From: a virus
Length of the DNA stretch: 64,000 nucleotides
Direction: 5' to 3' (one strand)
Virus record (IMG/VR): IMGVR_UViG_3300050343_000270
Span: 50,402 to 114,401 of that record
In this document: positions 4,931 through 58,064 of the stretch, one piece after another
Numbering within the stretch: the first letter of the stretch is position 1
Layout: the number at the start of each line of letters is the position of its first letter
The notes under the pieces: model-generated
Database searches by the model: none
Told to the model about the DNA's origin: nothing
Seen by the model: only the letters and a program-made list of their open reading frames with translations
Translations under genes and position numbers: made by a program

Positions 4931-4950
4931 TTCTAACACCACTAAAAATT

Positions 4951-6180: not shown

Positions 6181-6181
6181 T

Positions 6182-7154: not shown

Positions 7155-7210
7155 TTATTGAGACAAAGAACCGTAAAAAAATAAAAACCATAAGAGCCGC
7201 TTATTTTACA

Positions 7211-7669: not shown

Positions 7670-7712
7670 TTTTTTTTGTTTTTTTCCTTTTTTAAATATA
7701 TAATATGTAGAT

Positions 7713-22907: not shown

Positions 22908-23249
22908 TTAGAATGGAATGTCGTCGTCTACATCATCATTTGATGACTCTGGCTGAGATCCAGCGTTGCTTGATGCTTTTAGGCTATCAATCCTCCAAGC
23001 TGACAGACTGACATAATGATTGCCATTATACTCATTGCCTCGCACATTGAAGAATACCTCAACTGACTGACCGTCATTCAAATCATCAAGCTTGCCGCAA
23101 TTGTCTTTAATAAGTTCAAATTTAACATCTTGAGGATACTTGTCGTCATTTGTAGTGATGACAAATTCGCGCTTAGAGAAGCCGCTGTCAAATGTAACAG
23201 TTTCTCCAATTAGTTTGATTTTACCGTCTAGTTTTAGTTCGTTTTTCAT
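22908..23249 (-). CDS. DUF3127-like OB-fold ssDNA-binding protein
   Basis: FSKREFVITT..KYPQDVKFEL...FNVRGNEYNG..YVSLSAWRI with acidic DDDIPF tail. Confidence 0.75.
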   Translation of the reverse strand: MKNELKLDGKIKLIGETVTFDSGFSKREFVITTNDDKYPQDVKFELIKDNCGKLDDLNDGQSVEVFFNVRGNEYNGNHYVSLSAWRIDSLKASSNAGSQPESSNDDVDDDIPF

Positions 23250-24376
23250 TTGCAAATATTATATAACATAATCCAATCTAAGTCAAGAAAAATATCATCA
23301 ATATTTTCAAAAGAGTTCGATTCATAGTGGCTATTGTATTGTTGATTGTTTTTAAATACTTTTTTTCTACTGGCAATACGACTATTTTTGATAACCTCTT
23401 CGCTTATCTTTTCTTTTGACTCGCTTAATTTAGATTCTTCATCATAAGGTATCACTTTGTAATCAAAGAACTTAACTCGCTGTTGTTTTAAATTAATTTT
23501 ATTTGTGCAAATGAGGTGCATATCGATACCTCTCTCGCGAATATTATTAACAAAATTCTCGTCAAATTCATCTGCAACGTAGTTAATTAATTTAATTCTC
23601 GAACTATTAAGTAATTCTTTATCAATGGGTTTATTTGTAATTATCGATGCAGGGCTAGCCTCTAGCGATTGAGCGAGGTTGTCTTCATTGTGAAGCATGT
23701 CCATGCGTATAAATAAATTAGGGTGTTTGATTTGATATGGAAAATCTGGAACGATCTCGAATTGCTCTATAGTGTATTTAGGTCCTATGTAAGAAACCGA
23801 AGGGATTTGTGCTTTAAATTCAGGATCAACAAGGTCGCAAAATTCTTTGGATATCTCGTCTGGCTTAAGTCGGTTGATTGTCTTTGGGTTTTCTTCAAAT
23901 GAGAAAGATGGCTTCTCACCATTCGGGCGGTGAGTTTCAATTAGCTTTTGATTTTCGGGGTTACCCCAATATGGTCGCACACAAGCAACGTAAGAGTTTG
24001 CATAAACAGATAACATCTTTTTGTTGTAGTGACCAGCAAGATGGGCGGGAAAAGAATCAACACCTATAAAGTAATCACAGCGCCTGATAACATAAGCCAT
24101 TTGGTTTATGGTTGTTTGACCACGTAAATCAATATCACAATTAATTGTTGGATCTTTTTCTAGCCCTATTTGAACTGTTGTTATTCCGTGTTTTTTAAAC
24201 AGCGGTTGAAGCATCAATTTCACCTCGTTCCAATAATCATAGTCGCGCAAATTATCCTTTGCAGAAGTATGAAACACGACATACTTATCTGATACCACGG
24301 GGTAGAATTGTGCGTTAATTTCAGGGTTTTCAATTTTTAAACCCGTAGATAAACTATATCGTTCTAAGAGGTGCAT
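23246..24376 (-). CDS. GT9-like (heptosyltransferase-fold) glycosyltransferase
   Basis: VQIG...DLRGQTTINQMAYVIRRCDYFIGVDSFPAHLAG, the GT9 C-terminal motif. Confidence 0.7.
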   Translation of the reverse strand: MHLLERYSLSTGLKIENPEINAQFYPVVSDKYVVFHTSAKDNLRDYDYWNEVKLMLQPLFKKHGITTVQIGLEKDPTINCDIDLRGQTTINQMAYVIRRCDYFIGVDSFPAHLAGHYNKKMLSVYANSYVACVRPYWGNPENQKLIETHRPNGEKPSFSFEENPKTINRLKPDEISKEFCDLVDPEFKAQIPSVSYIGPKYTIEQFEIVPDFPYQIKHPNLFIRMDMLHNEDNLAQSLEASPASIITNKPIDKELLNSSRIKLINYVADEFDENFVNNIRERGIDMHLICTNKINLKQQRVKFFDYKVIPYDEESKLSESKEKISEEVIKNSRIASRKKVFKNNQQYNSHYESNSFENIDDIFLDLDWIMLYNICK

Positions 24377-26106
24377 TGCTTATTATAATTTTCAGAGTGA
24401 ATATCGAACATTATTTTATCGGCATCTCCTTGGTGCAGATAATCCAACATCCGTTGAGTTCCGATGTGAGGCAAGAAACATAAGTGGAAGTATCCTTTGT
24501 GGTTACTCGCGCCTTCCATCATCGGTAAGTTTTCCATGGCAGTATGGAAATTTAAAACTTTGTATATGTATGGATTGCCTTTGAGTATCGGTTGGAACTG
24601 TTCTTGGGTAGCGAAGTAAATGTCTTTGTTGGGATATGTTTTTTTCAGAGAAGGTAATAGTGATGTTGCTATGAATACATCGCCAGCAGATTCTGGCATA
24701 ACAAACAAAATGCGGTCATCAATTTCTCCATCTAACATGTCGGACAATTCTGGTGGGGCAAGGCTATTATCTTGCTCTTGTTCGACTTTAATTTTTTCAG
24801 CTTTGTAAACCTCCCTGAATGTTGTCTTTAACTTCTCTACTGTAACATCAACGGAAAAGCGGTCATCCAGACATTTTCTGCCGTTTTTCAAAAAGTGTTT
24901 TTTCATTTCATCATCCATTCTGAAAACTTTATGTAAATTGGAAGATATACTAGAAGGTCTTGTTGTCGCTTTAATGAAGTTCGTATGAGGTTCACGATAT
25001 TCATCCCAATCTAATGGCATTCCGCCATCTTCTTGAGAACATGAATCAAGACCACAAGAATAAGATGTGGCAAGAGTGATTAAGCCAGCCGATTTAGCTT
25101 CTTGAATGGGAAGCTCTTGACCGCCGCTGGTAAATGGATGGCAATAAACATCCATAATGTTGTAGATTTGGTTGAGTTGGTTCTCATTTACTCCCTTGCC
25201 ACTGTTTTTTGTTTTGACGCTTTTCGTTGAACCGCAAACACCGCAATTTTTATCTTCACCAGAATACGGAGCTAGAAAAAACTGACCGCATTTGTGGCAC
25301 AGGTAGGTAGCTAAGACATCTTTAGGGTTGATCTTTTTTTCGACGATGTATTTTTCAATATCCCAACCAGCATCTTTTTCTGCCCAATCGGTGTGTAGTA
25401 AAAGTTTCGTTTTTAATTCGGGGTGACTTTCTTGAAAAAGCCTAAATCCTTCAAGGATGTTTGGGACAGATTTTCTAAGTTGATTTTTGAATACAAAACC
25501 AATGACGTAGTCTTCACTTAGATTGTGTTTTTCTCTTAGTGCGTTTCGCTCGATAGCAGGAAGGGGATAATAATCTTTGTAATCTATAGCCCCGTGAATA
25601 GTTTCCACACCTTCGTAGCCATTCTCCTCCATTGCTTTTTGAGCAAACGTAGCCCACACCAACATCTTGTCACATACGCCGTGCATGTGATATGCTTGAT
25701 CAAGTATAGGTAAACTATCTAAAGTTGTCCACAGAATGGTTTTAACATCTTTCCACCATTTCTTTTTTTCAAATTGAGAGAAAGCCCATATATCTTCAAT
25801 ACCAAGATAGATATCGGGATTTTCTTCTTCAACAATTTTGTCAATCATGTAGTAGCCATAAGAAGCGGCGCGTTCTTTGGCTGGGTCTCCTTTTATTTTT
25901 TGTAAGACATCTGCCGTGGGGTGAGTTCCATAACTCTTCCAAGGAGTCATAAGGTCATTACCAAACCCAACCCCATTAGCCGCCTCAATAACCTCAAACT
26001 CATCGCTGTCATGGAGAGCGAGAAGAATGTTTTTCATATTCTTCCCAAACCCCGTGACAAGACGAGAGTAATTTGAATGAACTAATACTTTGATTTTTTT
26101 AGACAT
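24364..26106 (-). CDS. GT4 glycosyltransferase with Zn-ribbon insert and C-terminal GT9-like N-domain
   Basis: TGFGKN; NQLRKSVP; YNIMDVYCHPFTSGGQELPIQEA; CHKC...CGVC; C-terminal SAGDVFIATSLLPSLKKTYP...NPYI. Confidence 0.75.
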   Translation of the reverse strand: MSKKIKVLVHSNYSRLVTGFGKNMKNILLALHDSDEFEVIEAANGVGFGNDLMTPWKSYGTHPTADVLQKIKGDPAKERAASYGYYMIDKIVEEENPDIYLGIEDIWAFSQFEKKKWWKDVKTILWTTLDSLPILDQAYHMHGVCDKMLVWATFAQKAMEENGYEGVETIHGAIDYKDYYPLPAIERNALREKHNLSEDYVIGFVFKNQLRKSVPNILEGFRLFQESHPELKTKLLLHTDWAEKDAGWDIEKYIVEKKINPKDVLATYLCHKCGQFFLAPYSGEDKNCGVCGSTKSVKTKNSGKGVNENQLNQIYNIMDVYCHPFTSGGQELPIQEAKSAGLITLATSYSCGLDSCSQEDGGMPLDWDEYREPHTNFIKATTRPSSISSNLHKVFRMDDEMKKHFLKNGRKCLDDRFSVDVTVEKLKTTFREVYKAEKIKVEQEQDNSLAPPELSDMLDGEIDDRILFVMPESAGDVFIATSLLPSLKKTYPNKDIYFATQEQFQPILKGNPYIYKVLNFHTAMENLPMMEGASNHKGYFHLCFLPHIGTQRMLDYLHQGDADKIMFDIHSENYNKQCTS

Positions 26107-32856: not shown

Positions 32857-33720
32857 ATGAAACTTTGGCTAACAGGAATGACTAACGCTGGCAACGGCAA
32901 TCACTTAAAGGAACTCATTGAGCCTATCAAGAAATACTTTGATGGGATGGTGTGGGTTTATCACACCGATCCCTTTGAACAGTCTAAGAACAAAGACTTG
33001 GAAGACGAAGGATATCAATACCTATCTGAGAACTGTGAAGACAATGAGTTAATATGTGTCCCTTGGTGCAATCGAACAGACTTCAGCCGAAACATTGGTC
33101 TTTATCACGGTCCAATAAAATACGGCGACTGGTTTATGACAATTGACACTCTAGAGCGTATGCATTTGGATTTTGCCGAACAACTACCTGATCTTGTTAA
33201 ACGCTTCGATGAAAATCTTATTGATGGAGTATTTTGCCGCAACAAACATTTCCTTTTTAAATTCAACGAGCGCACAGCTTACGTTCAAAACCCTCATAGT
33301 GGGGTTTCTGGTATTACTAACAGTCTTGAAATATCTTCACTTCCTTTTTGGAAAGACGAGTATTGGCAAAATGTACGCCACCTTCACCGCGACAAACATG
33401 AATTTGTTGACCACAATTTAAAATATTATTTATTCCCCAACACTAACCACCTTATCTTAAAGTGTGAACATGACCGCGATTTTATCAATAGAAGATATAC
33501 CATTAGAAAAAAGTTTTTTGATGAGTTGGCTAAGATAGAATTAGATATTCAAGATTTTGAAGCTGTAAAAAATTACATCATTACTGGTGATTTGACAGAT
33601 GTTGTCAAACAATGTATACGCGAAGAGAAATATCTAAATGATGTTTACCGATTCTACAAAGTTGGAGATAAAGATATTGATGATGATTTTGATTTTAATA
33701 ACTTAGTGCCAGTAGGATGA
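32857..33720 (+). CDS. GT2-like glycosyltransferase
   Basis: Start MKLWLTG; WCNRTDFSRN...DWFMTIDTLER...NPHSG pattern of GT-A proteins. Confidence 0.55.
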   Translation: MKLWLTGMTNAGNGNHLKELIEPIKKYFDGMVWVYHTDPFEQSKNKDLEDEGYQYLSENCEDNELICVPWCNRTDFSRNIGLYHGPIKYGDWFMTIDTLERMHLDFAEQLPDLVKRFDENLIDGVFCRNKHFLFKFNERTAYVQNPHSGVSGITNSLEISSLPFWKDEYWQNVRHLHRDKHEFVDHNLKYYLFPNTNHLILKCEHDRDFINRRYTIRKKFFDELAKIELDIQDFEAVKNYIITGDLTDVVKQCIREEKYLNDVYRFYKVGDKDIDDDFDFNNLVPVG

Positions 33721-34625
33721 TTTTATCGGATGAACAGAGGATATCCTACTACCTAGGACATCAAAATTTAAACTTCAAAGAAGAACCTTTTGACTTCTCG
33801 CCTCACGAATTGTTTGACCATCCATTTTGTGTTGATGCTCGAAATAAACAATGCCTGTCTAGAGCGCACTATGACCCTGACATAATAAAATACGTCAGTC
33901 TAAACAACCTAGAAAAGCTTTGGTTTTGCTGTGGAGATAAACCTTATACTGGAGTCAACTACCCTGTTCTAGTTAAAACTCGCGACACTTTCAATAAATT
34001 AAGTAAGGGAGTTATTGCTAACTTAAATAGCGGTAGACACTGGAATTTAGATCTTTCTCAAGACATTGACTGGCATGATAAAAAAAACGAAGTTTTCTGG
34101 AGGGGCGCGGACACAGGACACAATATTCATTGCAATGACCGCATAGGTTTTGTTTCTAAATACTTTTCAGAACACGATGTTGCATTTTCCGACTATTCTC
34201 AAAACTACAAGTCTGCACCATACCTGTATAAAAATGAATGGCTAAAGGGATTTTGCACAAGGCAGGACTTTTTAAAGAGAAAGTTTTTGCCAATTCTCGA
34301 CGGCAACGATAAGTCCTCTTCTCTTAATTGGATACTAGCTTCTAACTCTGTCCCCATAATGCCCAAGCCTAGATTTCACTCTTGGCTTTGCGAAGATTTC
34401 CTAGAAGACGGGGTTCACTATATAGAGGTTCAACCAGACTTCTCTGATCTTAATATTGTTTTAGATTGGTGTCGCGAAAACGACGAAGAATGCGAATCTA
34501 TTGCAAAAAACGGTGCTAAGTTTATTTCAGAAAACTTTACTAATCAAGAAACAGAAACTCGCATAATTAAATCTTTACTTGAATTTATTCGTTCTGGTTT
34601 GTATGATATTAAAAACAAGGGATAA
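33717..34625 (+). CDS. GT90 (CAP10-like) glycosyltransferase
   Basis: WHDKKNEVFWRGADTG; ILDGNDKSSSLNWILASNS; VHYIEVQPDFSDL...IAKNG. Confidence 0.8.
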   Translation: MILSDEQRISYYLGHQNLNFKEEPFDFSPHELFDHPFCVDARNKQCLSRAHYDPDIIKYVSLNNLEKLWFCCGDKPYTGVNYPVLVKTRDTFNKLSKGVIANLNSGRHWNLDLSQDIDWHDKKNEVFWRGADTGHNIHCNDRIGFVSKYFSEHDVAFSDYSQNYKSAPYLYKNEWLKGFCTRQDFLKRKFLPILDGNDKSSSLNWILASNSVPIMPKPRFHSWLCEDFLEDGVHYIEVQPDFSDLNIVLDWCRENDEECESIAKNGAKFISENFTNQETETRIIKSLLEFIRSGLYDIKNKG

Positions 34626-35665
34626 TGAAAAAAGTAATAATCACAGGGGTAACAGGTCAAGATGGAAGCCATATGGTTGACTATTTGTTAGCAAATACGG
34701 ACATCGATATTATTGCTGGCGTCCGCCGACTCTCAGTTAAAAACCATGAGAATATAAAACACTTGGTTAATAACGACCGCTTTAAACTGATTGACCTAGA
34801 CATTACAGATCAATCCAATGTTGATCGTGTTATCTCGGATGAGAAACCCGATTACTTTATCAACTTTGCGGCAAACTCTTTTGTTGGTGTTAGCTGGGAC
34901 ATGCCAGAAAACCACATGAATACAAACTGCATGGCAGTCCTGTATCAGCTTGAGGCTATTCGCAAGCACTGTCCAGAGTGTAGGTATTACAATGCTGGCT
35001 CGTCCGAGGAGTTTGGAGACGTTGCATTCTCTCCGCAAGACGAGACTCACCCTCTGCGACCAAGAAGCCCATACGGAGCTTCTAAGGCTTCCGCAAGGCA
35101 TCTGGTAAAGGTGTGGCGGGAAAGTTACAATTTATACGCCATCCAAGGATGGTTATTCAATCACGAGGGAACAAGGAGGGGCGAGGAGTTTCTTACTCGC
35201 AAAGTGACTAAAGGCGTGGCTAACATTATAAAAGAGATCAGGGAGGGTAAAGAAATCACGCCATTGCAACTTGGTAATCTAGATGCAAAACGAGACTGGT
35301 CGGACGCTGAAGATTTCGTTGACGGCATTTGGAAGATGTTACATCAAACAGCAAACTCTTATGAAGATTTAAGTGAATACGTTCTAGCATCTGGTGAGAC
35401 ATATTCCATTCGGGATTTTGTTGAAGCGGCTTTTGGCTTTGCTGGTTTCGGCGCTGAAAAGTGTCGTTGGGAGGGTCAAGGTCTGGATCAAAAATACATT
35501 CACGGAGATCAGGTGCTTGTAACAATCAATCCAAAATACTATCGACCAGCAGAAGTTTCATTATTGCTGGGTGATCCCACAAGAGCAGAAGAAGAGCTTA
35601 AATGGGTTAGAAAAACAGACTTTTATGGTCTTGTCATAAAAATGCTTAATAAAGACTTATCATGA
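34625..35665 (+). CDS. gmd: GDP-mannose 4,6-dehydratase
   Basis: ITGVTGQDGS, SSEEFG, PRSPYGASK, FNHEG.RRGEEF, LGNLDAKRDW, YYRPAEV. Confidence 0.95.
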   Translation: MKKVIITGVTGQDGSHMVDYLLANTDIDIIAGVRRLSVKNHENIKHLVNNDRFKLIDLDITDQSNVDRVISDEKPDYFINFAANSFVGVSWDMPENHMNTNCMAVLYQLEAIRKHCPECRYYNAGSSEEFGDVAFSPQDETHPLRPRSPYGASKASARHLVKVWRESYNLYAIQGWLFNHEGTRRGEEFLTRKVTKGVANIIKEIREGKEITPLQLGNLDAKRDWSDAEDFVDGIWKMLHQTANSYEDLSEYVLASGETYSIRDFVEAAFGFAGFGAEKCRWEGQGLDQKYIHGDQVLVTINPKYYRPAEVSLLLGDPTRAEEELKWVRKTDFYGLVIKMLNKDLS

Positions 35666-49844: not shown

Positions 49845-50660
49845 ATGAGAGTTTTGGTAACAGGTAGCGAAGGTTTTATTGGTAAAAATTTATGCGAATT
49901 TTTAGCAAAACGCGGTATTGATGTAGAAGGTTGTGATTTAAAAAATGGTAGCAGGTTCAACCCAAACCTAAATGGTTTTGATGCGGTTATCCACTTAGCG
50001 GCAAACTCGTCAACCACCGAAACAAATATAGCTAAAATAATAAAAGAGAACTTTGAATTCTCTAAGGTTATATACAATCTTTGTTCTTCGAATAACATAA
50101 AATTTCAGTATTCTAGCAGTGCTAGTGTTTACGGGAACAGTAAGACCTTTCAAGAAGACCAGTTTTGTTCTCCGCTTAACCCTTACGGATTCAGCAAGTA
50201 TATGTTTGATTGCTGGCTTTTAAATTCAACACATCCGTATCAGGGTCTACGTTATTTTAATGTTTATGGAAAACACGAAGAACACAAGGGCGATCAAGCT
50301 AGCCCAATCCACAAATTTTCACAGCAAGCTCAAAAAAACGGCAAAATAAAAGTTTTTAAAAACAGCGAAAAGATGAAAAGAGATTTTGTTTGTGTCGAAG
50401 ATGTTTGTGAGGCTCATTACAGGCTACTGCATTCTGATGCTAGTGGGGTTTTCAATGTCGGCACGGGTTCAAATATATCTTTTCTTGATGTAGCTAATAT
50501 TTTTTGCGATAAGTATGGGGCTACAATTGAAACAATTAAAATGCCTAAACAGCTAAAACAACACTATCAATATAAAACAAAATCCGACAATACTAGACTA
50601 ATAGATGCTATTGGAGATATTGAATGGAGGTCAGTAGAAGAGTATGTGAAAAAAATATGA
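49845..50660 (+). CDS. hldD: ADP-L-glycero-D-manno-heptose 6-epimerase
   Basis: TGSEGFIG, SSTTE, YSSSASVYG, PLNPYGFSK, GLRYFNVYG.HEEHKG..AS, RDFV, YQYKT. Confidence 0.85.
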   Translation: MRVLVTGSEGFIGKNLCEFLAKRGIDVEGCDLKNGSRFNPNLNGFDAVIHLAANSSTTETNIAKIIKENFEFSKVIYNLCSSNNIKFQYSSSASVYGNSKTFQEDQFCSPLNPYGFSKYMFDCWLLNSTHPYQGLRYFNVYGKHEEHKGDQASPIHKFSQQAQKNGKIKVFKNSEKMKRDFVCVEDVCEAHYRLLHSDASGVFNVGTGSNISFLDVANIFCDKYGATIETIKMPKQLKQHYQYKTKSDNTRLIDAIGDIEWRSVEEYVKKI

Positions 50661-50696
50661 CATAATAGATACAATATAAGTGTAAAAATGTTCATA

Positions 50697-51014
50697 ATGG
50701 ACTTTAAACTTTTGTTACGAGAATTTCTTTGTGAGGGTGGGTGGCTTGTTCCTGTTGTCGGAGCTTTTGGTATGCTAGCCAGAATTATGATCGACCCCAA
50801 CAAGCATTCTCTTTTCTCTCTCTTTAGAAAAATCTTCAGTGCGGCTATATCCAGTGGTATTGCTTGGTTTATTTTAAACGGCGCTCCTTTCTCTGATTTT
50901 ACAAAAGCTATATGTTATGGTGTGATTGGTGTTGTTAGTCCAGAAATCATTCAAGGTTTAATCGCTCTTGCTAAAAAATTTGAAAAAAACCCTTCTAAGT
51001 TTATAAAAAAATGA
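50697..51014 (+). CDS. Putative holin
   Basis: Three hydrophobic segments, basic C-terminus, coupled to the endolysin; GTGTAA at 50680, 11 nt before ATG 50697. Confidence 0.7.
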   Translation: MDFKLLLREFLCEGGWLVPVVGAFGMLARIMIDPNKHSLFSLFRKIFSAAISSGIAWFILNGAPFSDFTKAICYGVIGVVSPEIIQGLIALAKKFEKNPSKFIKK

Positions 51015-51679
51015 GTTTATTTTCGTGGATAAAAAATCTTTTCTCTAAAAAACAAAAAAGGGAGGTAAAAGATATATATATTCTTTCCGAAAAATCACTA
51101 AAACTCATTCTTCAATATGAGGTTGGGAATAAAGGTTATTATAATCGTTTTTTAGACCATCCAACTTACCCACAGGCTTCCAGCGGTGTCACAATTGGCA
51201 TCGGCTATGATTTAGGTTACAATTCAGCCGAAACTGTCAAAAAAGACTGGAAGAACTTCCTTTCTAAAAATGATTTAAAACGAATTACTTCTGTTGTTGG
51301 TTACAGAGGTGGTGTTGCCGAGTCACACGCGAAACGTATATCGGATATAACGATACCTTGGGATTCCGCTGTTCAGGTTTTCCAAGAAACAACTGTTCCA
51401 AAATTTATAAATTACACACTCAAAGCTTTCCCACAATGCGAGGATCTTCATCCTGATGCTTTTGGAGCGCTTGTTTCTATTGTTTTTAATAGAGGTGCTT
51501 CCATGAAGGGTTCTAGACGCTCTGAAATGCGCAATATTCGCTCTCTTGTCCTACAAAAAGACTACAAGTCTATCGCTCGTGAAATACGCTCCATGAAGCG
51601 TATATGGCGAGGAAAAGGCTTAGATGGCTTACTCAAGCGTCGAGAAGCTGAAGCGATATTAGTTGAATCTTGTATTTGA
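51011..51679 (+). CDS. Endolysin (lysozyme-fold, GH24/pesticin-like)
   Basis: YEVG...SGVTIGIGYDLG; ALVSIVFNRG; GLLKRREAEA. Confidence 0.82.
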   Translation: MSLFSWIKNLFSKKQKREVKDIYILSEKSLKLILQYEVGNKGYYNRFLDHPTYPQASSGVTIGIGYDLGYNSAETVKKDWKNFLSKNDLKRITSVVGYRGGVAESHAKRISDITIPWDSAVQVFQETTVPKFINYTLKAFPQCEDLHPDAFGALVSIVFNRGASMKGSRRSEMRNIRSLVLQKDYKSIAREIRSMKRIWRGKGLDGLLKRREAEAILVESCI

Positions 51680-51711
51680 CATTTGCTTAAAATTGTTTTA
51701 TTATAATTAAC

Positions 51712-52011
51712 ATGATACACGATTTTTTTAACCTGCGTAAAATCACCAGAGATGATATTTTGCGCTATGTTTTGCGCAATACTAATTTTTGCCCTATCGA
51801 GCAACAAATCGATCCACTTTATTTTGAGGTCTTTGAGGAATGTATTTTAAATTCCCATACAAAAGAAATCATAGATCAAGATCAGGAGTTTGTTTTCTTT
51901 CAAAAAGAGCTTTCTAAATTAAGACGTTTAGCCCCTAATATGAAAAAGTCTGAAATTCTTTCCTTGTGTGAAGAACTAGAAAGCTTCGCGCCGAAAACAA
52001 TTAAAGTTTAA
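51712..52011 (+). CDS. Hypothetical protein
   Basis: Preceded by TTGACA (51676)-17 nt-TATTAT. Confidence 0.6.
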   Translation: MIHDFFNLRKITRDDILRYVLRNTNFCPIEQQIDPLYFEVFEECILNSHTKEIIDQDQEFVFFQKELSKLRRLAPNMKKSEILSLCEELESFAPKTIKV

Positions 52012-52069
52012 ATAATACTTTTTGTAAGTTGATTGTTAAAATTAGATTTTTTATCTATATTGATATATA

Positions 52070-52462
52070 ATGGGTATGGCAAAAAAACCAATATTCAGTA
52101 AGGTTGAACAGCATGACAAAGCATGGGGTCGTGAGCTTTGGATGGTTAACAATGAGAAGTATTGCGGCAAAATACTTGAGTTTAATCAAGGCTCTTCTTT
52201 TTCCATGCACTATCATATCAAAAAGGAGGAAACTTGGATGGTCGTTCAGGGAGTATTTGAAATGGAATATTTTGATCTTAAGTCGGCTGATATTTCAAAA
52301 ACCATTTTAAATGTGGGTGACACAGTTCATTTAGAGCCTAGCATCCCTCATAAACTAACCTGTGTTGAATGTGAGAGTGGTAAAGGCATGATATTTGAGG
52401 TTAGCACACAACATTTTAATGAAGATTCCTATCGAATTGGCAAGGGTGATTCTCAAAAATGA
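52070..52462 (+). CDS. Cupin sugar isomerase-like protein
   Basis: KAWGRELW...YCGKIL...SMHYHIKKEETW...PH...EVSTQH..EDSYR. Confidence 0.75.
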   Translation: MGMAKKPIFSKVEQHDKAWGRELWMVNNEKYCGKILEFNQGSSFSMHYHIKKEETWMVVQGVFEMEYFDLKSADISKTILNVGDTVHLEPSIPHKLTCVECESGKGMIFEVSTQHFNEDSYRIGKGDSQK

Positions 52463-53244
52463 ATATTTTAGTTATAGGAGAATCTTGTAAAGATGTTTTT
52501 GTTTATGGGTCTATTGATAGAATTTGCCCAGAAGCCCCCGTTCCTGTTTTTGTCCCCAATCGGCAAACGGCGCACCTAGGCATGGCTGGAAATGTCACAC
52601 TTAACATTTGTGCTATTTCAGGACTCAGAAAAGATAGCGATACTGAATGCCATTTGCATTCAAACCTAACTAAAGGTCACAAGACTCGCTTTGTTGACGA
52701 ATCGTCTAATCAAATGCTTATGCGTATTGATACAGACTCTTACGATGAAAATCATGTGCGCAATAAATTTAAAAACATTAAAAGTATTGATTTTTCTATT
52801 TATGATGCTGTCGTTGTTTCTGATTACAACAAGGGTTTTTTGAGTTATGATGATATAAACTATATCGCTGACAAAACGCGGGAATCTAGCAACGCTAAAT
52901 TATTTATAGATACAAAAAAACATCCTCGCAGTTCTTCTGATTTTTCTGGTTTCGATTTTATAAAAATTAATGAGAAGGAGTTTACTGAAAACGGTTTCAG
53001 TGAATTATATGAAGACTATGAATCTCAATTAATTATCACCAAAGGCTCTAAAGGATGTAGCTACAAAAACAAAGACTATCCATGTCAAGCTACTCAGGTT
53101 TTCGATGTTTCTGGCGCGGGGGACACTTTCTTGGCGGCTTTTGTTTATGAATACATGAAAACGTTAGATGTAGAAAAAGCTCTTGACTTTTCTCAAAAAT
53201 GCTGTAGTGTCGTTGTAGCCAAAAAAGGAGTATGCACAGTTTGA
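52459..53244 (+). CDS. rfaE1: PfkB-family heptose-7-phosphate kinase (HldE kinase domain)
   Basis: ILVIGE..D...RICPEAPVPV, GMAGNV, KTRF, SDYNKG, VFDVSGAGDT. Confidence 0.85.
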   Translation: MNILVIGESCKDVFVYGSIDRICPEAPVPVFVPNRQTAHLGMAGNVTLNICAISGLRKDSDTECHLHSNLTKGHKTRFVDESSNQMLMRIDTDSYDENHVRNKFKNIKSIDFSIYDAVVVSDYNKGFLSYDDINYIADKTRESSNAKLFIDTKKHPRSSSDFSGFDFIKINEKEFTENGFSELYEDYESQLIITKGSKGCSYKNKDYPCQATQVFDVSGAGDTFLAAFVYEYMKTLDVEKALDFSQKCCSVVVAKKGVCTV

Positions 53245-53738
53245 AACACAATAAGATACTATCTTACGAAGATTTAACAAAAGAAGTTAAACAAATCCAC
53301 GACATGAGAGGATTTGGGATCTGTCCTCCCCTCGCTTTAACAAATGGTTGTTTTGATTTGTTTCATGCTGGTCACGCCCGATTATTAAATTCGATCAAAT
53401 CATCTATTATTGGCGGCAAATTGATTGTGGGTATCAATAGCGATGAAAGCGTCAAATGTCTCAAGGGTGACAGCCGCCCGATTATTCCCGCCGATCAAAG
53501 GGCTTACATCATAGCTAGCCTAGCTTGTGTTGATTATGTGTTTATTTTTCCAGAAACAAACATTGAACGATACTTGAGGGAAATCAAGCCTGATATTTGG
53601 TTTAAGGGTGGGGACTATAATATAAACTCTCTAAACAAGGAGGAGGAGGAAGTGATCAGAAGTTGCCGTATTGATGTTCGCTTTGAATCATTCGTAGAAG
53701 GCATAAGTTCAACTAATATTATAAAAAAAATAAAATGA
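53232..53738 (+). CDS. rfaE2: Heptose-1-phosphate nucleotidyltransferase (HldE domain II)
   Basis: TNGCFDLFHAGH, VGINSDESV..LKG..RPI, KGGDY, FVEGISST. Confidence 0.88.
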   Translation: MHSLKHNKILSYEDLTKEVKQIHDMRGFGICPPLALTNGCFDLFHAGHARLLNSIKSSIIGGKLIVGINSDESVKCLKGDSRPIIPADQRAYIIASLACVDYVFIFPETNIERYLREIKPDIWFKGGDYNINSLNKEEEEVIRSCRIDVRFESFVEGISSTNIIKKIK

Positions 53739-54055
53739 AAAGAGTTTGTGTAGATATCGACGGCACAATATGCAGTCTAACAGATGGTGACTATAATATG
53801 GCTAAACCGTATACCGACCGCATTGATTTTGTTAATGAACTGTATGACAAAGGAGTGGAAATAATCTACTGGACGGCGCGTGGAGGAACGTCTGGTAAGG
53901 ATTATACAGACCTCACAACACGCCAGCTTGAAGAGTGGGGAGCCAAATATACGAAGCTTCTTTTGGATAAAATGTCATTCGACGCTTTGATTGACGATAA
54001 AGCATTTAACTCTAACAAATTTTTCTCAGGAGAATATTCTTATGATTTCACATAA
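53735..54055 (+). CDS. Minimal HAD phosphatase
   Basis: DIDGTI, WTARG, LIDDKA. Confidence 0.75.
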   Translation: MKRVCVDIDGTICSLTDGDYNMAKPYTDRIDFVNELYDKGVEIIYWTARGGTSGKDYTDLTTRQLEEWGAKYTKLLLDKMSFDALIDDKAFNSNKFFSGEYSYDFT

Positions 54056-54575
54056 AGCAAAAAATATGTCGTCACCGCGACACATTCACAAATCACAACA
54101 CCTAGGTCAAAGTGGCGAACGTCGTTTTTACGATAGCTGTAAAGTCTTAGGTAAAGATGTAAAGAAGACCTCCAAAGCTGATGATATGGGTCATGTTGAT
54201 TTTGTTGTGGACTCGCAGACATACGATGTCAAAGGTCTCAAAGATAGCACTAAAGAAGGTTTTATTCTATTGGAGTTGAAAAACGTACAGGGGAAAAAGG
54301 GTTGGTGTAATGATGAAGAAAAACCTGATTGGATTGCTTTTGATTTTGGTGCGTTCTTTGCATGTTTTAAAAATTCTGACTTGTATAAAGCTAGTCAAAA
54401 ATTATGCGATCTATCGGATACAGTATCAAAAGCAAAGGATTGTCTATACAAGGGGTATACGAGAAGGGGTCGAGAAGATCTAATGACAATGATAACACTA
54501 CAAGACGCGCTCAACAACTGTGAGCATATGTTCATTCCTTATAAGGAATATAGTGAACCTATGGAGTTATTATAA
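54042..54575 (+). CDS. PD-(D/E)XK-like endonuclease
   Basis: GQSGERRF...HVDFVV...YDVKG...LLELKNVQGKKGW. Confidence 0.55.
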   Translation: MISHKAKNMSSPRHIHKSQHLGQSGERRFYDSCKVLGKDVKKTSKADDMGHVDFVVDSQTYDVKGLKDSTKEGFILLELKNVQGKKGWCNDEEKPDWIAFDFGAFFACFKNSDLYKASQKLCDLSDTVSKAKDCLYKGYTRRGREDLMTMITLQDALNNCEHMFIPYKEYSEPMELL

Positions 54576-55228
54576 TGAAACTTGCCACAGCATTATTATC
54601 ATCTTATGAAAGGCAAGACAATCTACGCAAGATTATCGACAATTTGCGTAAACAATCTGTCGATGTTGATATTTTTTTATGGAATAATAATCCAGAAGAT
54701 AAAACAGAATATCCTGTAGAACTTCAAATCAACTCTTCGAAAAATTTGATGTGTTGGGGGAGGTGGTTCATGGCGAATTACGCCAGCGCAGATTATGTAT
54801 TTTCCTTGGATGATGATCTGCTCTTTACAGATAACCGCATGATTGAGGATTCTATTGATTATCTTGACAAAAATGATTGTGACGCTATTGGTTACAGTGG
54901 CGTTAGAATTATAGACGATTCAAAAGACTACTTTGACCAAAAACACATCTTCCTTGCTCGACAAGATCAGACAGTTGATATCATAAAGGGCGGGTTTTTA
55001 TTTGCTAAAAAGCAAAACTTAAGAATACCACAAGATTTATTTGACGCTTGCACCGAAAACCCAAGGATAGAAGACGATATTATTATCTCTTCTTTCTTAG
55101 ATAAAAAAGTCGTGCCAAGCTTTATGAGGAGAAGGCTCAGGAGTCAAGATGGTTTTTTTAATGGCTTGCACTCTCAGCCCGACCATTCACAATCCAGAAC
55201 CCAATACATGAGGAAGTATTATGGATAA
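54575..55228 (+). CDS. GT-A fold glycosyltransferase (GT2-like)
   Basis: SYER..NL; YVFSLDDD; EDDI. Confidence 0.7.
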   Translation: MKLATALLSSYERQDNLRKIIDNLRKQSVDVDIFLWNNNPEDKTEYPVELQINSSKNLMCWGRWFMANYASADYVFSLDDDLLFTDNRMIEDSIDYLDKNDCDAIGYSGVRIIDDSKDYFDQKHIFLARQDQTVDIIKGGFLFAKKQNLRIPQDLFDACTENPRIEDDIIISSFLDKKVVPSFMRRRLRSQDGFFNGLHSQPDHSQSRTQYMRKYYG

Positions 55229-55958
55229 GCATCTATTTGTTATAGTGCGATACAACAATGTTATACAGAAAATGTATCAAGATTATATTGCACCCAAAAA
55301 CAAGGACTACTGTGAGCGTCACGGCATTCAATATATTGAAGTAAACCACGATTGGGATATTCCCGATTTTCGAGGTAATATCACTTGGATGAAATTTTAT
55401 CTTGTGCAGGAGTGGATTAAAAAAGGTATTTTAAATGACGGCGACTCGATTGTTAATTTCGATGCTGACATGGTTGTTGTTAAGCCTGAGCTTGAATACA
55501 AGACCGACAAGAGCTTTTCTTACGCCATAGATAGCTGTAACAGCCATTGCATGGGAAACTACTGCATCAATATCAATGATTGGAGCAAGAAGCTTGTAAA
55601 CGACATTCTGGACGAAAACCTATATCAAACTCATAAGCACACAAGACACTGGAAGTTTTTCAGAGAACAGGCGGCTTGGTATACTTTGGCTGGGATTGAT
55701 GCTTCTTGTAAACAGTCTTACTTGAATCAGGGAGATTATGGATTTCACTCTGTCGATACAGGAGTGTATTCTTTGGAAGAGTTGCGAGAACACGTTGACG
55801 TTAAACCTCCAATTTGGGATTGCACTCTATTAGAAGATGAAATTGACAATAGACGCGCCGCAAGGATTCAACCACTATTCATCAACAAAACACAGCCCAA
55901 AGACACAATTATTCGTCATTTTGCGGCTAGACAACCTTGGAGAAAAAAATACTTATGA
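55221..55958 (+). CDS. GT34-like glycosyltransferase
   Basis: YCERHG.QY, WMK, FDAD, REQAA, IRHFA. Confidence 0.7.
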   Translation: MDKHLFVIVRYNNVIQKMYQDYIAPKNKDYCERHGIQYIEVNHDWDIPDFRGNITWMKFYLVQEWIKKGILNDGDSIVNFDADMVVVKPELEYKTDKSFSYAIDSCNSHCMGNYCININDWSKKLVNDILDENLYQTHKHTRHWKFFREQAAWYTLAGIDASCKQSYLNQGDYGFHSVDTGVYSLEELREHVDVKPPIWDCTLLEDEIDNRRAARIQPLFINKTQPKDTIIRHFAARQPWRKKYL

Positions 55959-56692
55959 TTGCAACATTAACAATGTGTAGTTTGGATTTTGATGAGGATT
56001 ATATTCCTCATTATTTAAATCATTATAATGAACAGGAAATAGATAAACATATTTTAATGCTTCATTCTAAAAAAGCTGTAGATGAAGATTATTCTAGAGA
56101 TAAGTATTCCGCTGATAATGTTAATTTGTTTTTTACTTATGGTGAGTGGAATTCTGTTGTCATGCAAAACGAAAAACACAGCTTGCTAAAAAAATTAGAT
56201 ATTGGTATTGACGATTGGATTATTAATTCAGATATTGATGAACACGCCGAATCAAAGCACGGCTCTCTAAGAAGTAAAATTTCAGAAATGACAGGTAATG
56301 GAGAAAATTGCTGTGTCGGTAGAATGGTTGACAGAATTACAGAAAACGGATCTTTCAGTAAAATACTACCAGATATACCGCTTTCAGAACAGTTTCCTCT
56401 GTCTGCTAATATTGGGAGGAGATTACTACGTTGCCAAACAAGAAAATTGCCTATTTCAAGAGGTGATATCACTACTCTTGGAGGGAATCATCATGTTATT
56501 CCAGACCACGAAAAAAAGGCGGTTTATAACGATGAAGTTTTAACAGTGAATCATTATAAATGGACAGCCAGAACCAAAGAAAAGCTTGAGGAAAGGGTTC
56601 GCACTCACAAAGCTTTTTATCACTGGAGGGAGTCAGCTAGGTTCTTAGATTATCTTGATAAAGGAGGAAATATTAATAAATTTAAACAATGA
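55955..56692 (+). CDS. GT2-like glycosyltransferase
   Basis: YLNHY; WIINSDIDE; GNHH; HYKW. Confidence 0.7.
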   Translation: MIATLTMCSLDFDEDYIPHYLNHYNEQEIDKHILMLHSKKAVDEDYSRDKYSADNVNLFFTYGEWNSVVMQNEKHSLLKKLDIGIDDWIINSDIDEHAESKHGSLRSKISEMTGNGENCCVGRMVDRITENGSFSKILPDIPLSEQFPLSANIGRRLLRCQTRKLPISRGDITTLGGNHHVIPDHEKKAVYNDEVLTVNHYKWTARTKEKLEERVRTHKAFYHWRESARFLDYLDKGGNINKFKQ

Positions 56693-57357
56693 ATTACACT
56701 TGCTTAATACTAACTCATAAAAACAAAGCCAGCGGCAAAGTCTTAACGCCGCATCTAGAGGTCTTCAAACAAAACAACCCACAATGCAATGTGCGTATAG
56801 TTGTTGGAGAAGATCACGCGCAAGGCAAAAGATATAATTGGCGCAATGGCGATCAACCACTTAGAAAGTGGTGGCTGGAAAACTCTAATCTAGTTGCAAC
56901 AGAAAATGTTGCCGTGATCGAATGGGACACGCTAGTTAATTGTGAGCTTCCTGCAATTCCAGAACAGTTCGATCTAGTTGGCGCTCAATACATGAAAGAA
57001 CCATTTCATCTAAGAGGCAAATGGAGGTGCAGAAGCCAAGAAGACCCAAAGTGGACTCCAGACAACTGGTGGTGGTGGAGAGAAATTCCGCTATTAGAAT
57101 TGAATAAGGGAGAACAAGCTTGTGGTTTAGTTTCGTTGGGTTGTTTCTTAATGAGGCGATGTGTATTAGACGCTGTATGTAAAAAAAGATGGGACAAAGT
57201 TTATTCAAAGAATATAATTAGTGAAATGAGATTTCCTACAGTCGCAAGTATCGAAGGAGCAAGGATTGGGCAAATCGACCTACCATTCGTTCATCATTCG
57301 ACAATGAATTTCTCTGGCGAGAAACAAATATATCATCCTATTAAAGAAGCTCAATGA
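56689..57357 (+). CDS. Putative GT-A fold protein
   Basis: WRNGD...IEWD...SEMRFPT...YHPIK; within the GT run. Confidence 0.45.
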   Translation: MNYTCLILTHKNKASGKVLTPHLEVFKQNNPQCNVRIVVGEDHAQGKRYNWRNGDQPLRKWWLENSNLVATENVAVIEWDTLVNCELPAIPEQFDLVGAQYMKEPFHLRGKWRCRSQEDPKWTPDNWWWWREIPLLELNKGEQACGLVSLGCFLMRRCVLDAVCKKRWDKVYSKNIISEMRFPTVASIEGARIGQIDLPFVHHSTMNFSGEKQIYHPIKEAQ

Positions 57358-58064
57358 AAAAAAACGTATTTACATATTGGCAGGGGCAAAAAACAGATTT
57401 AATCATTGATCTTGAAAAACGGCTTAGACAAGTTTGTTCGGATAATGGCTACCACCTTTTCGAACTAGATGAAAAATCTATACGTGATCATCTTGATCTT
57501 CCAGACTGTTTCAACAATGCCACTCATGTTATTGATATCAGTGATTTTATACGCATTGAACTTTTGGTTAAATATGGTGGGATTTGGTTAGATAAAGACG
57601 TTATTTCCTTCAAAAAGTTCGATCACCTTTTTCAAACTATTGAAGATAAAAGCGGTTTTATTGTTGGGGTTCCCATGCAATATAGAATGGGTATCAATAA
57701 CGCAATTCTTGGCGCGTCAACAGAATGCGCCTTTTATAAAAGGTGGTCGCAACACAATCATAAAGTAATCCAACAACCAAAACCAACTTGGGGTAAATTA
57801 CCTTTCGGCGTTAATCTCCTTAAAAAAGCGAAACGAGAATCTTGGATACAAAATATCGAAGTAATTAATGGTTACGAAACAAGAATGGAGTTCTTTGGAA
57901 GCTATCGTGTGCAAAAATTACTGATGGATTTAGACCCAGAATGCGTAATGAACGCTAACCCTAGTTTAGTGCATTTGTTTGACAGAAATTGCCGCATGTA
58001 TAACAAGATAAATCAACAAGAAAAAGAAAACACCTTGCTGTATAGGTTGTTGAATTACAAATAG
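57354..58064 (+). CDS. GT32/capsular synthesis-type DXD glycosyltransferase
   Basis: VFTYWQG; SDFIRIELLVKYGGIWLDKD. Confidence 0.8.
   Translation: MKKNVFTYWQGQKTDLIIDLEKRLRQVCSDNGYHLFELDEKSIRDHLDLPDCFNNATHVIDISDFIRIELLVKYGGIWLDKDVISFKKFDHLFQTIEDKSGFIVGVPMQYRMGINNAILGASTECAFYKRWSQHNHKVIQQPKPTWGKLPFGVNLLKKAKRESWIQNIEVINGYETRMEFFGSYRVQKLLMDLDPECVMNANPSLVHLFDRNCRMYNKINQQEKENTLLYRLLNYK

Follow-up and report, generated by a model that had tools for sequence, protein, structure and literature searches.

The window analysed here, a stretch of 64,000 nucleotides from an uncultured marine phage that has a polymerase of the DnaE type and lacks close relatives in culture, raises the question of how a phage that encodes homologues of HldA, HldC and HldD would make an activated heptose with neither a SIS-fold gmhA nor a canonical gmhB in the window. 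Based on comparisons of sequences and gene neighbourhoods, we consider it reasonably probable that the phage carries genes for a miniaturised and self-sufficient route that starts at sedoheptulose-7-phosphate, which is a pentose-phosphate intermediate, and ends at a nucleotide-activated glycero-manno-heptose, with a metal-binding cupin taking the GmhA step and a mini-HAD the GmhB step.

The genes for the cupin, the kinase, the nucleotidyltransferase (NT) and the HAD overlap by 4, 13 and 4 nt, i.e. they are translationally coupled (Table 1). A previous sequence-only reading described hldD followed by these four overlapping genes; the overlaps are confirmed, whereas hldD does not adjoin the cassette, as three ORFs intervene.

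Table 1. Features of the window considered in this analysis
Feature	Position	Strand	Basis
GT9-like protein, 376 aa	23246..24376	-	PF01075
HldD-like NDP-heptose 6-epimerase, 271 aa, shortened SDR	49845..50660	+	TIGR02197, PDB matches
Lysis module, outside the sugar pathway	50688..51679	+	Holin-like ORF and lysozyme-like ORF
Holin-like ORF, 108 aa, two TM	50688-51014	+	Hydrophobic windows confined to the 108-aa ORF
Lysozyme-like ORF	51011-51679	+	Phage_lysozyme match, 3.8e-8
Conserved 99-aa ORF, function not assigned, directly 5' of the cupin gene	51712..52011	+	No family match
Metal-binding cupin, 130 aa, proposed GmhA analogue	52070..52462	+	Cupin_2
HldA/HldE-domain-I-like PfkB kinase, 261 aa, proposed heptose-7-P 1-kinase	52459..53244	+	rfaE_dom_I
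HldC/HldE-domain-II-like NT, 168 aa	53232..53738	+	rfaE_dom_II
Capless HAD phosphatase, 106 aa, proposed GmhB substitute	53735..54055	+	HAD motifs
177-aa ORF, weak PD-(D/E)XK nuclease-like fold	54042..54575	+	Conserved beside the HAD in window-type phages
Block of soluble GT-like genes and genes without assigned function	54575..58064	+	Pfam matches
GT2	54575-55228	+	Pfam match
GT32/Caps_synth-like	57354-58064	+	Pfam match

The heptose identity of the pathway is indicated by the kinase, the NT and the SDR because each of them matches heptose enzymes best, both among families and among solved structures. For the kinase, rfaE_dom_I ranks first among families (6.4e-39) and Burkholderia HldA (4e84) among PDB structures; the alignment with this HldA includes the GAGD motif and, at the N-terminus, the 'RIxPEAPVPV' stretch. 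Similarly, the NT matches rfaE_dom_II best (6e-42) and its closest solved structure is HldC (5x9q, 7.7e-22), with the HxGH motif aligned. The SDR matches the ADP-glyceromanno-heptose 6-epimerase model TIGR02197 at 2.4e-69 and 234 bits, which is under the cut-off of 274.6; HldD structures fill the first four places among its PDB matches (1eq2 at 8e-41), with the Ser, the YxxxK motif and the second-base Lys (GHKG) aligned. All three proteins score below the NCBIfam equivalog cut-offs, and a segment corresponding to about positions 30-64 of the epimerase model is missing from all phage HldD-like proteins.

No SIS-fold gmhA and no canonical gmhB were detected in the window, as the sequence-only reading had stated. 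Specifically, a GmhA HMM run against all six frames gave a best E of 1.1, the best match of a GmhB HMM was only the mini-HAD itself (E 0.025), and tblastn searches using the E. coli proteins GmhA and GmhB were negative. The same reading suggested asking whether cupin and gmhA are mutually exclusive: SIS GmhA was found in none of 100 cupin loci, and of 50,697 phage records only 13 contain GmhA homologues, with the cupin absent from all 13. We conclude that, at the level of the locus, cupin and SIS GmhA are mutually exclusive. As for gmhA elsewhere in cupin-bearing genomes, SIS_2 searches detected nothing in the complete P-SSM2 and S-SM2 genomes or in 8 large IMG/VR viral records (52-89% completeness); by contrast, 3 of 10 cupin-bearing cellular genomes have a GmhA-like gene elsewhere. 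Finally, of 81 genomes from the family to which the cyanophage hosts belong, 60 gave no match to gmhA.

The cassette is conserved. In about 57 of 65 IMG/VR loci, the genes for cupin, kinase, NT and HAD lie next to one another, and their order is shuffled in cyanomyoviruses and other lineages. Most related viral loci have a homologue of the 99-aa ORF 5' of the cupin gene. Moreover, among five large or complete cassette-bearing records, all have HldD-like genes and four have GT9-like genes. Across databases, the cupin is fused to the kinase domain PF00294, to the NT domain PF01467 or to both; a fusion to an SDR also exists. In total, these patterns support that the cupin, the kinase, the NT and the HAD are functionally coupled.

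The cupin, which belongs to a family that is almost entirely viral, matches Cupin_2 (29.7 bits) and, weakly, Lyx_isomer, MannoseP_isomer and WbuC; it scores below the cut-off of PF01050. In an alignment of homologues, H47, H49, E54, H94, K17, K34, K52 and R122 are invariant, and the His/His/Glu/His metal site is intact. Alignment by hhalign with the type II PMI-type domain of E. coli CpsB (probability 32%) pairs K17/W19/G20, Y31, K34, S45, H47(Q), H49, K52(R), E54, W56 and G61. An AF2 model (pLDDT 90.8) has the CapF cupin domain as its top structural neighbour (Z 16.1); the best fold matches also include D-lyxose isomerase (Z 14.0, 21% identity) and the PMI of T. kodakarensis (Z 14.7), but otherwise the fold search does not discriminate. 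The resemblance of the cupin to PMI is weak throughout. Sister clades with 43-52% identity occur in non-heptose contexts: one sister cupin adjoins thymidylate synthase in a 164-kb record without an HldA-like kinase, others form fusions with an FkbM methyltransferase and have an FAD-oxidoreductase and an AAA_28 protein as neighbours, and further ones lie near NeuB or GDP-mannose dehydratase.

In the mini-HAD, the motif residues D7xD9xT11, T47, K79 and D87-D88 are invariant across 24 homologues with the exception of D87, which is nearly invariant. Its nearest solved relatives are 9iqw (7e-18), a 'capsule biosynthesis protein', and 1xpj. The mini-HAD shares 47% identity with PSSM2_311 of P-SSM2, and the window has no other HAD-like frame. 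The mini-HAD belongs to a family other than that of GmhB and, because both are in one HAD superfamily, does not represent a different fold. The 177-aa ORF next to it gave an AF2 model with a pLDDT of 86.7, for which the best Foldseek rows were I-Ssp6803I, Hjc and PvuII, all with E >0.05; this ORF probably lies outside the pathway.

Cellular loci bear on the role of the cupin. A CPR bacterium (locus L099) encodes a kinase~cupin fusion (rfaE_dom_I 315 bits; full-length PF01050 match above cut-off), an NT~GmhB fusion, a GT9 and an HldD that exceeds its cut-off (401 bits), and SIS_2 was not detected in its 1.2-Mb genome. Judged by gene content, every other step is present and the cupin is the sole candidate isomerase. 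Moreover, the fusion of canonical GmhB to the NT matches the role proposed for the mini-HAD gene beside the phage NT. In an archaeal MAG (L078), genes for HddA (275 bits), a cupin and an HddC-like protein form a run, with a mini-HAD about 1.2 kb upstream. Therefore, cupin and HAD travel with either of the two kinase/NT pairs, which are not homologous; such a distribution would be expected if they catalyse the two steps common to the alpha and beta pathways. At a third locus (L104), an orthologous HddA (33% identity) adjoins SIS GmhA and a transaldolase. Altogether, the exclusion at cupin loci, the lack of SIS_2, the fusions, the association with HddA/HddC and the PMI motifs support the proposal of the sequence-only reading that cupin and HAD fill the GmhA and GmhB steps.

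The structural match to CapF, the cupin domain of which is a metal-dependent C3-epimerase of a UDP-keto-sugar, would fit a different role. The cupin could be a CapF/WbuC-type metal-dependent epimerase that tailors the nucleotide-heptose to a rarer heptose, e.g. together with the HldD-like SDR via a keto intermediate, with host GmhA providing the isomerase step or this step being skipped. The weak WbuC match spans most of the cupin, and the fusions to NT and SDR as well as the GmhA in some cupin-bearing genomes would fit this role. However, gmhA is missing from most genomes in the family of the cyanophage hosts, and the CPR genome without a SIS protein has all steps but the isomerase. Moreover, the cupin occurs as a fusion with the kinase or directly beside it, and the kinase acts ahead of nucleotide activation. 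The cupin also keeps the PMI-type Lys/Arg and Trp-Gly motifs and persists at loci where HldD is distant. We therefore regard an epimerase as unlikely.

The PMI-like motifs are also compatible with a true phosphomannose isomerase (F6P to M6P), in which case kinase, HAD and NT would convert M6P via mannose-1,6-bisphosphate to NDP-beta-mannose or a related hexose. Relatives of the cupin are labelled 'mannose-6-phosphate isomerase-like', related cupins have genes for GDP-mannose dehydratase and NeuB as neighbours, the window has a gmd gene, and the three heptose-type enzymes are under the NCBIfam cut-offs. By contrast, a hexose offers an HldD-clade C6-epimerase no stereocentre, yet such an epimerase accompanies the cassette in all five large records; the kinase has the HldA-specific N-terminal motif, and there are partners from GT9, a heptosyltransferase family. 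The substrate of GMD is GDP-alpha-mannose, a product not expected from this route. Altogether, a hexose pathway appears quite improbable. Finally, it is very improbable that cupin and/or mini-HAD are passengers (a regulator, an oxygenase or a phosphatase for another substrate) in a phage that boosts only part of the host heptose pathway: cupins are functionally diverse and GenBank labels this one 'cysteine dioxygenase' or 'putative nucleotidyltransferase', but translational coupling, strict co-occurrence across lineages despite shuffled order, and physical fusions to pathway enzymes argue against it.

The sequence-only reading placed GT9-like domains at 23246-24760. PF01075 is indeed present in the minus-strand ORF (40 bits, above cut-off; residues 18-154, about 23915-24325), whereas the stretch 24376-24760 is part of a separate 580-aa GT1-like ORF in which no GT9 signal was detected. 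The GT9-like ORF carries only the nucleotide-sugar-binding half of a heptosyltransferase and aligns with the donor domain of the GT9 of the CPR bacterium, including the D-x4-HLA stretch. All three large records of related phages have homologues of 371-376 aa, and a weak match lies within the P-SSM2 cluster. By its sequence, this protein is a candidate user of NDP-heptose. The block downstream of the 177-aa ORF, in which no TM segments were predicted, possibly comprises glycan assembly genes.

In the heptose route that we favour, the cupin would act as a metal-dependent PMI-type aldose-ketose isomerase converting sedoheptulose-7-P to D-glycero-D-manno-heptose-7-P (the GmhA step). The PfkB kinase would then phosphorylate C1 (the HldA/HldE-I step), and the capless HAD would remove the 7-phosphate from heptose-1,7-bisphosphate (the GmhB step). 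The HldC-like transferase would generate an NDP-heptose, probably ADP-heptose, of which the shortened HldD-like SDR would epimerise C6. The product may be used by the GT9-like protein and other soluble phage glycosyltransferases, with virion proteins or a host envelope precursor as conceivable acceptors. We observed the families and catalytic motifs of the enzymes for the kinase, transferase and epimerase steps, intact metal and HAD motifs, the coupling and conservation of the genes, and the lack of a SIS GmhA; we infer the substrates of cupin and HAD, the nucleotide and the acceptor.

Compared with the GmhA/HldA/GmhB/HldC/HldD route, the window has homologues of HldA, HldC and HldD with conserved catalytic motifs, the split HldA/HldC layout of Burkholderia and GT9-family partners. 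It differs in that a PMI-like cupin takes the place of SIS-fold GmhA, a capless HAD of 100-119 aa from the TIGR01689/9iqw family takes that of the HAD-IIIA enzyme of the GmhB family, and the window-type enzymes are all shortened and encoded by lytic-type marine phages. The HddA/HddC route has its first and third steps in common with the proposed route, and the archaeal locus joins the cupin and mini-HAD families with HddA/HddC-like genes; unlike that route, the window uses a PfkB and cytidylyltransferase-type pair rather than a GHMP kinase and NTP_transferase. The cupin shares a single cupin barrel, a metal site and the pattern 'WG ... S-x-[HQ]-x-H-x2-[KR]-x-E-x-W' with cupin-type sugar(-phosphate) isomerases (PF01050 type II PMI domain; T. 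kodakarensis PMI, 7zvy; D-lyxose/mannose isomerases, 3kmh and 7nzo), all of which convert ketoses to manno-configured aldoses; the similarity is at motif level only (18-21% identity), and for the phage cupin we propose a C7 ketose phosphate as substrate. Likewise, the mini-HAD resembles minimal C0 HADs (TIGR01689 EcbF/BcbF 'capsule biosynthesis phosphatase', 9iqw, 1xpj, BT0820) in size, lack of a cap and all four HAD motifs; its context points to heptose-1,7-bisphosphate.

'LPS / heptose' gene clusters are known from cyanomyoviruses, e.g. P-SSM2 T4-GC 304-308 (Sullivan 2005, PMC1079782; PMC7378029). These T4-like phages have five gene families in common with the window (35-47% identity) and differ from the window phage in lineage and gene order. 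The cassette has already been tagged 'heptose/LPS genes' in cyanophages, with the wrong proteins named. The cyanophage HAD is called 'phosphoheptose isomerase' in GenBank, which is a misannotation, and the cupin 'cysteine dioxygenase'; therefore, published annotation does not contain the idea of a cupin isomerase. Similarly, our literature search found no paper proposing a cupin and a mini-HAD as replacements of GmhA and GmhB. If the proposed route is correct, the cupin and the mini-HAD would represent a new enzyme type in a well-known pathway.

The window carries the phage hallmarks tape measure protein, ribonucleotide reductase, DnaB-like helicase and DnaE-type polymerase, and DNA searches of 50,697 phage records, in near and distant modes, gave no match to it. 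The sequence-only reading had listed hldD together with cupin, kinase, nucleotidyltransferase (NT) and HAD genes; this list was right, but hldD is not contiguous with the other genes, and a lysis module lies between it and the four-gene cassette. Within the cassette, cupin, kinase, NT and HAD overlap successively by 4, 13 and 4 nt. The conserved ORF directly 3' of the HAD, for which a TTG-start version from 53991 probably overcalls the true start, was set aside as a pathway member; it is weakly PD-(D/E)XK nuclease-like, and its fold matches were weak and comprised PD-(D/E)XK nucleases alone (I-Ssp6803I, Hjc and PvuII).

Features of the heptose locus and related genes; positions are in the window unless another record is named.
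Feature	Length (aa)	Position	Strand	Remark
GT9-like protein		23246-24376	-	PF01075 40 bits, above cut-off
HldD-like SDR	271	49845-50660	+	
Holin-like ORF		50688-51014	+	two TM
Lysozyme-like ORF		51011-51679	+	
Conserved ORF	99	51712-52011	+	
Cupin	130	52070-52462	+	
PfkB kinase	261	52459-53244	+	
Cytidylyltransferase-like NT	168	53232-53738	+	
HAD (mini-HAD)	106	53735-54055	+	
Conserved ORF directly 3' of HAD	177	54042-54575	+	confident model
Misnamed pair in cyanophage P-SSM2 (locus L002, NC_006883.2)		6719-7063, 7044-7400		also in S-SM2 (L001)

The SDR, the kinase and the NT all scored below the NCBIfam equivalog cut-offs and all are shorter than their bacterial counterparts. The SDR reached 234 bits against TIGR02197 (HldD; curated cut-off 274.6) and does not qualify as a full-length member; the first aligned model position is 63, and the N-terminal domain is ~30 residues short. 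In a PDB search, the best four matches of the SDR were HldD (E 8e-41 to 6e-28), the next SDR following at 3e-18, and in the alignment with 1eq2 the SSA, YGxSK and HKG motifs (Ser, YxxxK and the second catalytic Lys) were kept. HldD model positions ~30-64, part of the dinucleotide-binding domain, are missing from the proteins of the window, of three large related phage records (G001-G003), of P-SSM2 and of S-SM2; a domain shortened in this way might alter the cofactor handling of the phage HldD-like proteins. The kinase scored 134 bits against TIGR02198 (cut-off 345) and is ~50 aa shorter; aligned with its best PDB match, Burkholderia HldA (4e84), it has both the GAGD motif and the N-terminal 'R-I-x-P-E-A-P-V-P-V'. 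Similarly, the NT scored 143 bits against TIGR02199 (cut-off 181.5), and its best PDB match was HldC (5x9q, E 7.7e-22) with HxGH aligned. These matches suggest that the SDR, kinase and NT are divergent members of the HldD, HldA and HldC clades, not certified equivalogs.

The SIS-fold gmhA and the canonical gmhB are missing from the window, as had been claimed from the sequence: a GmhA HMM searched in six frames gave a best E of 1.1, and a GmhB HMM matched the mini-HAD alone, and weakly. Two checks proposed in the sequence-only reading, whether cupin and gmhA are mutually exclusive and whether gmhA lies elsewhere in the genome, were followed in relatives. At the level of loci the exclusion held, with SIS GmhA in 0 of 100 cupin loci (up to ~16 kb each); moreover, SIS GmhA was absent from the two complete cyanophage genomes of P-SSM2 and S-SM2 and from eight large IMG/VR records with an estimated completeness of 52-89%. 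Homologues of E. coli GmhA were detected in 13 phage records, none of which has the cupin. Among 81 sampled genomes of the cyanophage hosts' family, 60 had no gmhA match, and most such hosts therefore cannot supply the isomerase step. A GmhA-like gene was present on another contig in three of ten cupin-bearing cellular genomes, which weakens the case for replacement.

We favour, with moderate confidence, the reading that the phage has an NDP-heptose pathway of its own, complete in itself, with a phosphomannose isomerase (PMI)-like cupin in place of GmhA and a capless mini-HAD in place of GmhB. The mini-HAD has the four motifs of HAD superfamily phosphatases (DxDxT, T/S, K and DD), with D7, D9, T11, T47, K79 and D88 invariant and D87 nearly so among 24 sequences, and its homologues of 100-119 aa keep all four. 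It falls outside the GmhB family (TIGR00213, HAD-IIIA), for which ~180 aa and a HisB-type insert are expected, and its similarity to GmhB is confined to motifs I-II (hhalign probability 31%; 9 bits with the GmhB HMM). Based on genomic context, the cupin is a putative isomerase converting sedoheptulose-7-P (S7P) to D-glycero-D-manno-heptose-7-P. The cupin is not a member of the GmhA families (TIGR00441, PF13580) and has no SIS similarity; the relation to GmhA claimed here would be one of functional analogy, not of family membership.

The AF2 model of the cupin (pLDDT 90.8) is a single cupin barrel in which the classical metal site (H47, H49, E54 and H94) is invariant, as are K17, W19, G20, Y31, K34, K52, W56, S112, T113, H115 and R122. 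Against PF01050 (type II PMI), the cupin gave a partial match of 21.6 bits, below the threshold of 23.6 for family membership; the metal and substrate motif residues of PF01050 are present and all invariant in the phage family. In an hhalign alignment with the PMI-type domain at the C terminus of E. coli CpsB, K17/W19/G20, Y31, K34, S45, H49, E54, W56 and G61 were aligned, with H47 replaced by Q and K52 by R in CpsB, and searches of Pfam and NCBIfam gave motif-level matches to D-lyxose/mannose isomerase over the CpsB-aligned stretch. The similarity of the cupin to PMI is weak. A PDB sequence search returned generic cupins alone (E >= 0.0035). In a fold search, the cupin of the epimerase CapF ranked first (Z 16.1), ahead of T. 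kodakarensis PMI (Z 14.7) and of D-lyxose isomerase, whose Z was 14.0 and whose identity was the highest, and many unrelated cupins lay within 2 Z units; similarly, Foldseek and VIA-align confirmed the cupin fold and did not separate isomerase from epimerase. The role of a CapF/WbuC-like epimerase, which would fit the top fold match, is in our estimate an unlikely one for the cupin. PMI converts F6P to M6P via a metal-stabilised enediol, and the conversion of S7P to D-glycero-D-manno-heptose-7-P is the same chemistry on a substrate one carbon longer. We infer that this chemistry carries over to the phage cupin.

In a quick tree of the cupins, the protein of the window belonged to a well-supported clade of 41 viral cupins, and for 39 of these the fetched locus includes the kinase. 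For the sister clade, none of the fetched loci includes it: some cupins of this clade adjoin thymidylate synthase in a 164-kb record, in which no HldA-like kinase was found, and others form fusions with FkbM methyltransferases and have an FAD-oxidoreductase and an AAA_28 protein as neighbours. A second conserved viral cupin context, close to terminase, was observed in two loci (L116, 5368-8637; L060, 2130-4651) with the order FAD/pyridine-nucleotide oxidoreductase, ~90-aa ORF, cupin (sometimes fused to FkbM methyltransferase) and AAA_28 kinase-like protein. Further relatives adjoin GDP-mannose dehydratase, DegT aminotransferase or NeuB. Because relatives sit in such non-heptose contexts, manno-type sugar(-phosphate) isomerase-like is a better name for the whole family, which is almost purely viral and counts 7,400 or more metagenomic protein clusters, and we infer heptose specificity for the kinase-linked clades alone. 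That the cassette itself is a hexose (mannose) route appears distinctly improbable.

In one locus (L122, IMGVR_UViG_3300023180_007447, 4442-8090), a mini-HAD and a cupin have a NeuB-family synthase, methyltransferases and a GT47-like gene in their neighbourhood, and the fetched stretch contains no kinase; NeuB-cupin fusions are also present in the protein database. One idea is that this locus serves KDN-type nonulosonate synthesis, with mannose-6-P made by the cupin and the 9-phosphate taken off by the HAD. The window has a second nucleotide-sugar route of its own, a strong GDP-mannose 4,6-dehydratase (335 bits) adjoining a GT90-like gene (34625-35665 and 33717-34625, respectively); neither manB nor manC was found among the window ORFs scanned.

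With kinase and cupin as queries, tblastn matched 35 phage records each; all cupin records, and all except four of the kinase records, were T4-like cyanophages or marine single-virus genomes. Cupin, kinase, NT and HAD occur together in ~57 of 65 cupin loci in IMG/VR, and the exceptions are mostly contig ends. The order is cupin-kinase-NT-HAD in the window and NT-kinase-HAD-cupin in P-SSM2 and a further locus (L103), and in two loci (L054 and L056) the kinase is 4 kb off. Because gene order varies between lineages, the association is more than inherited synteny; that the cupin, the HAD or both are passenger genes is highly improbable. Among five large or complete cassette records, an HldD-like gene is present in all, at times ~26 kb from the cassette, and a GT9-like gene in four.

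In P-SSM2, T4-GC 304-308 are annotated as NT, kinase, 'phosphoheptose isomerase', 'cysteine dioxygenase' and nucleotide-sugar epimerase. The protein called 'phosphoheptose isomerase' (114 aa) is homologous to the mini-HAD (47% identity, E 3e-30) and is no isomerase; it is unrelated to the cupin, and the possibility that this label denotes the cupin was ruled out. The 'cysteine dioxygenase' is the cupin. The error is systematic in cyanomyovirus GenBank/RefSeq entries, in which 103-114-aa 'phosphoheptose isomerases' (T4-GC 306) are mini-HAD phosphatases and T4-GC 307, labelled 'cysteine dioxygenase' or 'putative nucleotidyltransferase', is the cupin. The cyanophage cluster has been published as 'LPS/heptose genes' with the identities of HAD and cupin left unsorted (PMC1079782; PMC7378029). 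A cupin with a type II MPI domain has been described in cyanophage S-SCSM1 (PMC9602691); it may differ from the window family because S-SCSM1 is outside the 35 phage records matched by the cupin.

Cellular relatives place the cupin beside recognisable heptose enzymes. In a Candidatus Levyibacteriota MAG (L099, PLZJ01000002.1), the heptose genes form one operon within a polysaccharide locus. It encodes two fusion proteins (7044-9337): in one, of 431 aa, a full HldA-type kinase (rfaE_dom_I, 315 bits) is joined to a cupin that passes PF01050 (28.7 bits, positions 12-115 of 116), and in the other, of 333 aa, an HldC-type NT is joined to canonical GmhB (158 bits). HldD (401 bits, above cut-off) and a GT9 heptosyltransferase (95 bits) come next, and a Wzx-like flippase and other glycosyltransferases are also present. 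No SIS_2 match was found in the 1.2-Mb genome. Thus, apart from the isomerase, the ADP-heptose route of this genome is complete, and the kinase, which acts on what the isomerase makes, is fused to the cupin; GmhB fused to the NT has the role that would fall to the mini-HAD gene adjoining the NT in the phage. To our knowledge, CPR bacteria are not usually counted as heptose makers. In an archaeal MAG (L078), an HddA GHMP kinase (NF049969, 275 bits), a cupin and an HddC-like NTP_transferase are consecutive, and a mini-HAD lies ~1.2 kb upstream. Therefore, cupin and mini-HAD occur with both kinase/NT pairs, which are not homologous to each other, as would be expected of enzymes for the two steps common to the alpha (GDP) and beta (ADP) heptose pathways. 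In another locus (L104), an HddA that is 33% identical to that of L078 adjoins SIS GmhA and transaldolase; a comparison with L078 shows the SIS protein directly displaced by the cupin next to orthologous kinases. Across the protein database, this cupin is fused with PF00294, with PF01467 and with both.

GT9-like domains had been placed at 23246-24760; the minus-strand protein of 23246-24376 matched PF01075 above the Pfam cut-off, but the part up to 24760 is in a different, GT1-like ORF of 580 aa, which has no GT9 similarity. The match covers the donor-binding (nucleotide-sugar) half of a GT-B enzyme alone (model positions 92-238), and the ~220 aa after it are unassigned. The GT9-like gene lies in a minus-strand block of GT-like genes amid tail and fibre genes. 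The NDP-heptose product would be used by soluble glycosyltransferases of the phage, the GT9-like protein among them.

Heptose biosynthesis is taken to start everywhere with GmhA as its committed enzyme, and gmhA therefore serves to mark genomes that make heptose-containing glycans; GmhA is also an antibiotic target. Neither the heptose pathway nor the cassette is new, but the proposed enzyme replacement is: no paper or curated family that gives a cupin a heptose isomerase function was found. More broadly, we consider evenly balanced the proposal that the cupin represents a large, almost purely viral family of metal-dependent S7P isomerases, non-homologous to GmhA, which with its capless HAD partner forms a portable module, such that marine phages, CPR bacteria and DPANN-type archaea could make activated heptose without canonical gmhA and gmhB. 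The module would make a manno-aldose phosphate and later strip the distal phosphate by the mini-HAD, and would plug into HldA/HldC or HddA/HddC and perhaps NeuB-type nonulosonate synthesis too.

If the cupin is an isomerase non-homologous to GmhA, a genome without gmhA could no longer be taken to lack heptose, a widespread misannotation in cyanophages would be corrected, and thousands of viral genes called 'cupin' or 'MPI-like', which are common auxiliary genes in ocean viromes, would gain a function; moreover, enzymes as small as these would be handy for making NDP-heptoses enzymatically. Abundant marine phages would then invest in a complete five-enzyme sugar-nucleotide route fed by the pentose-phosphate pathway, on the same node of which cyanophage talC acts, and this would raise the question of what lytic phages glycosylate with heptose.
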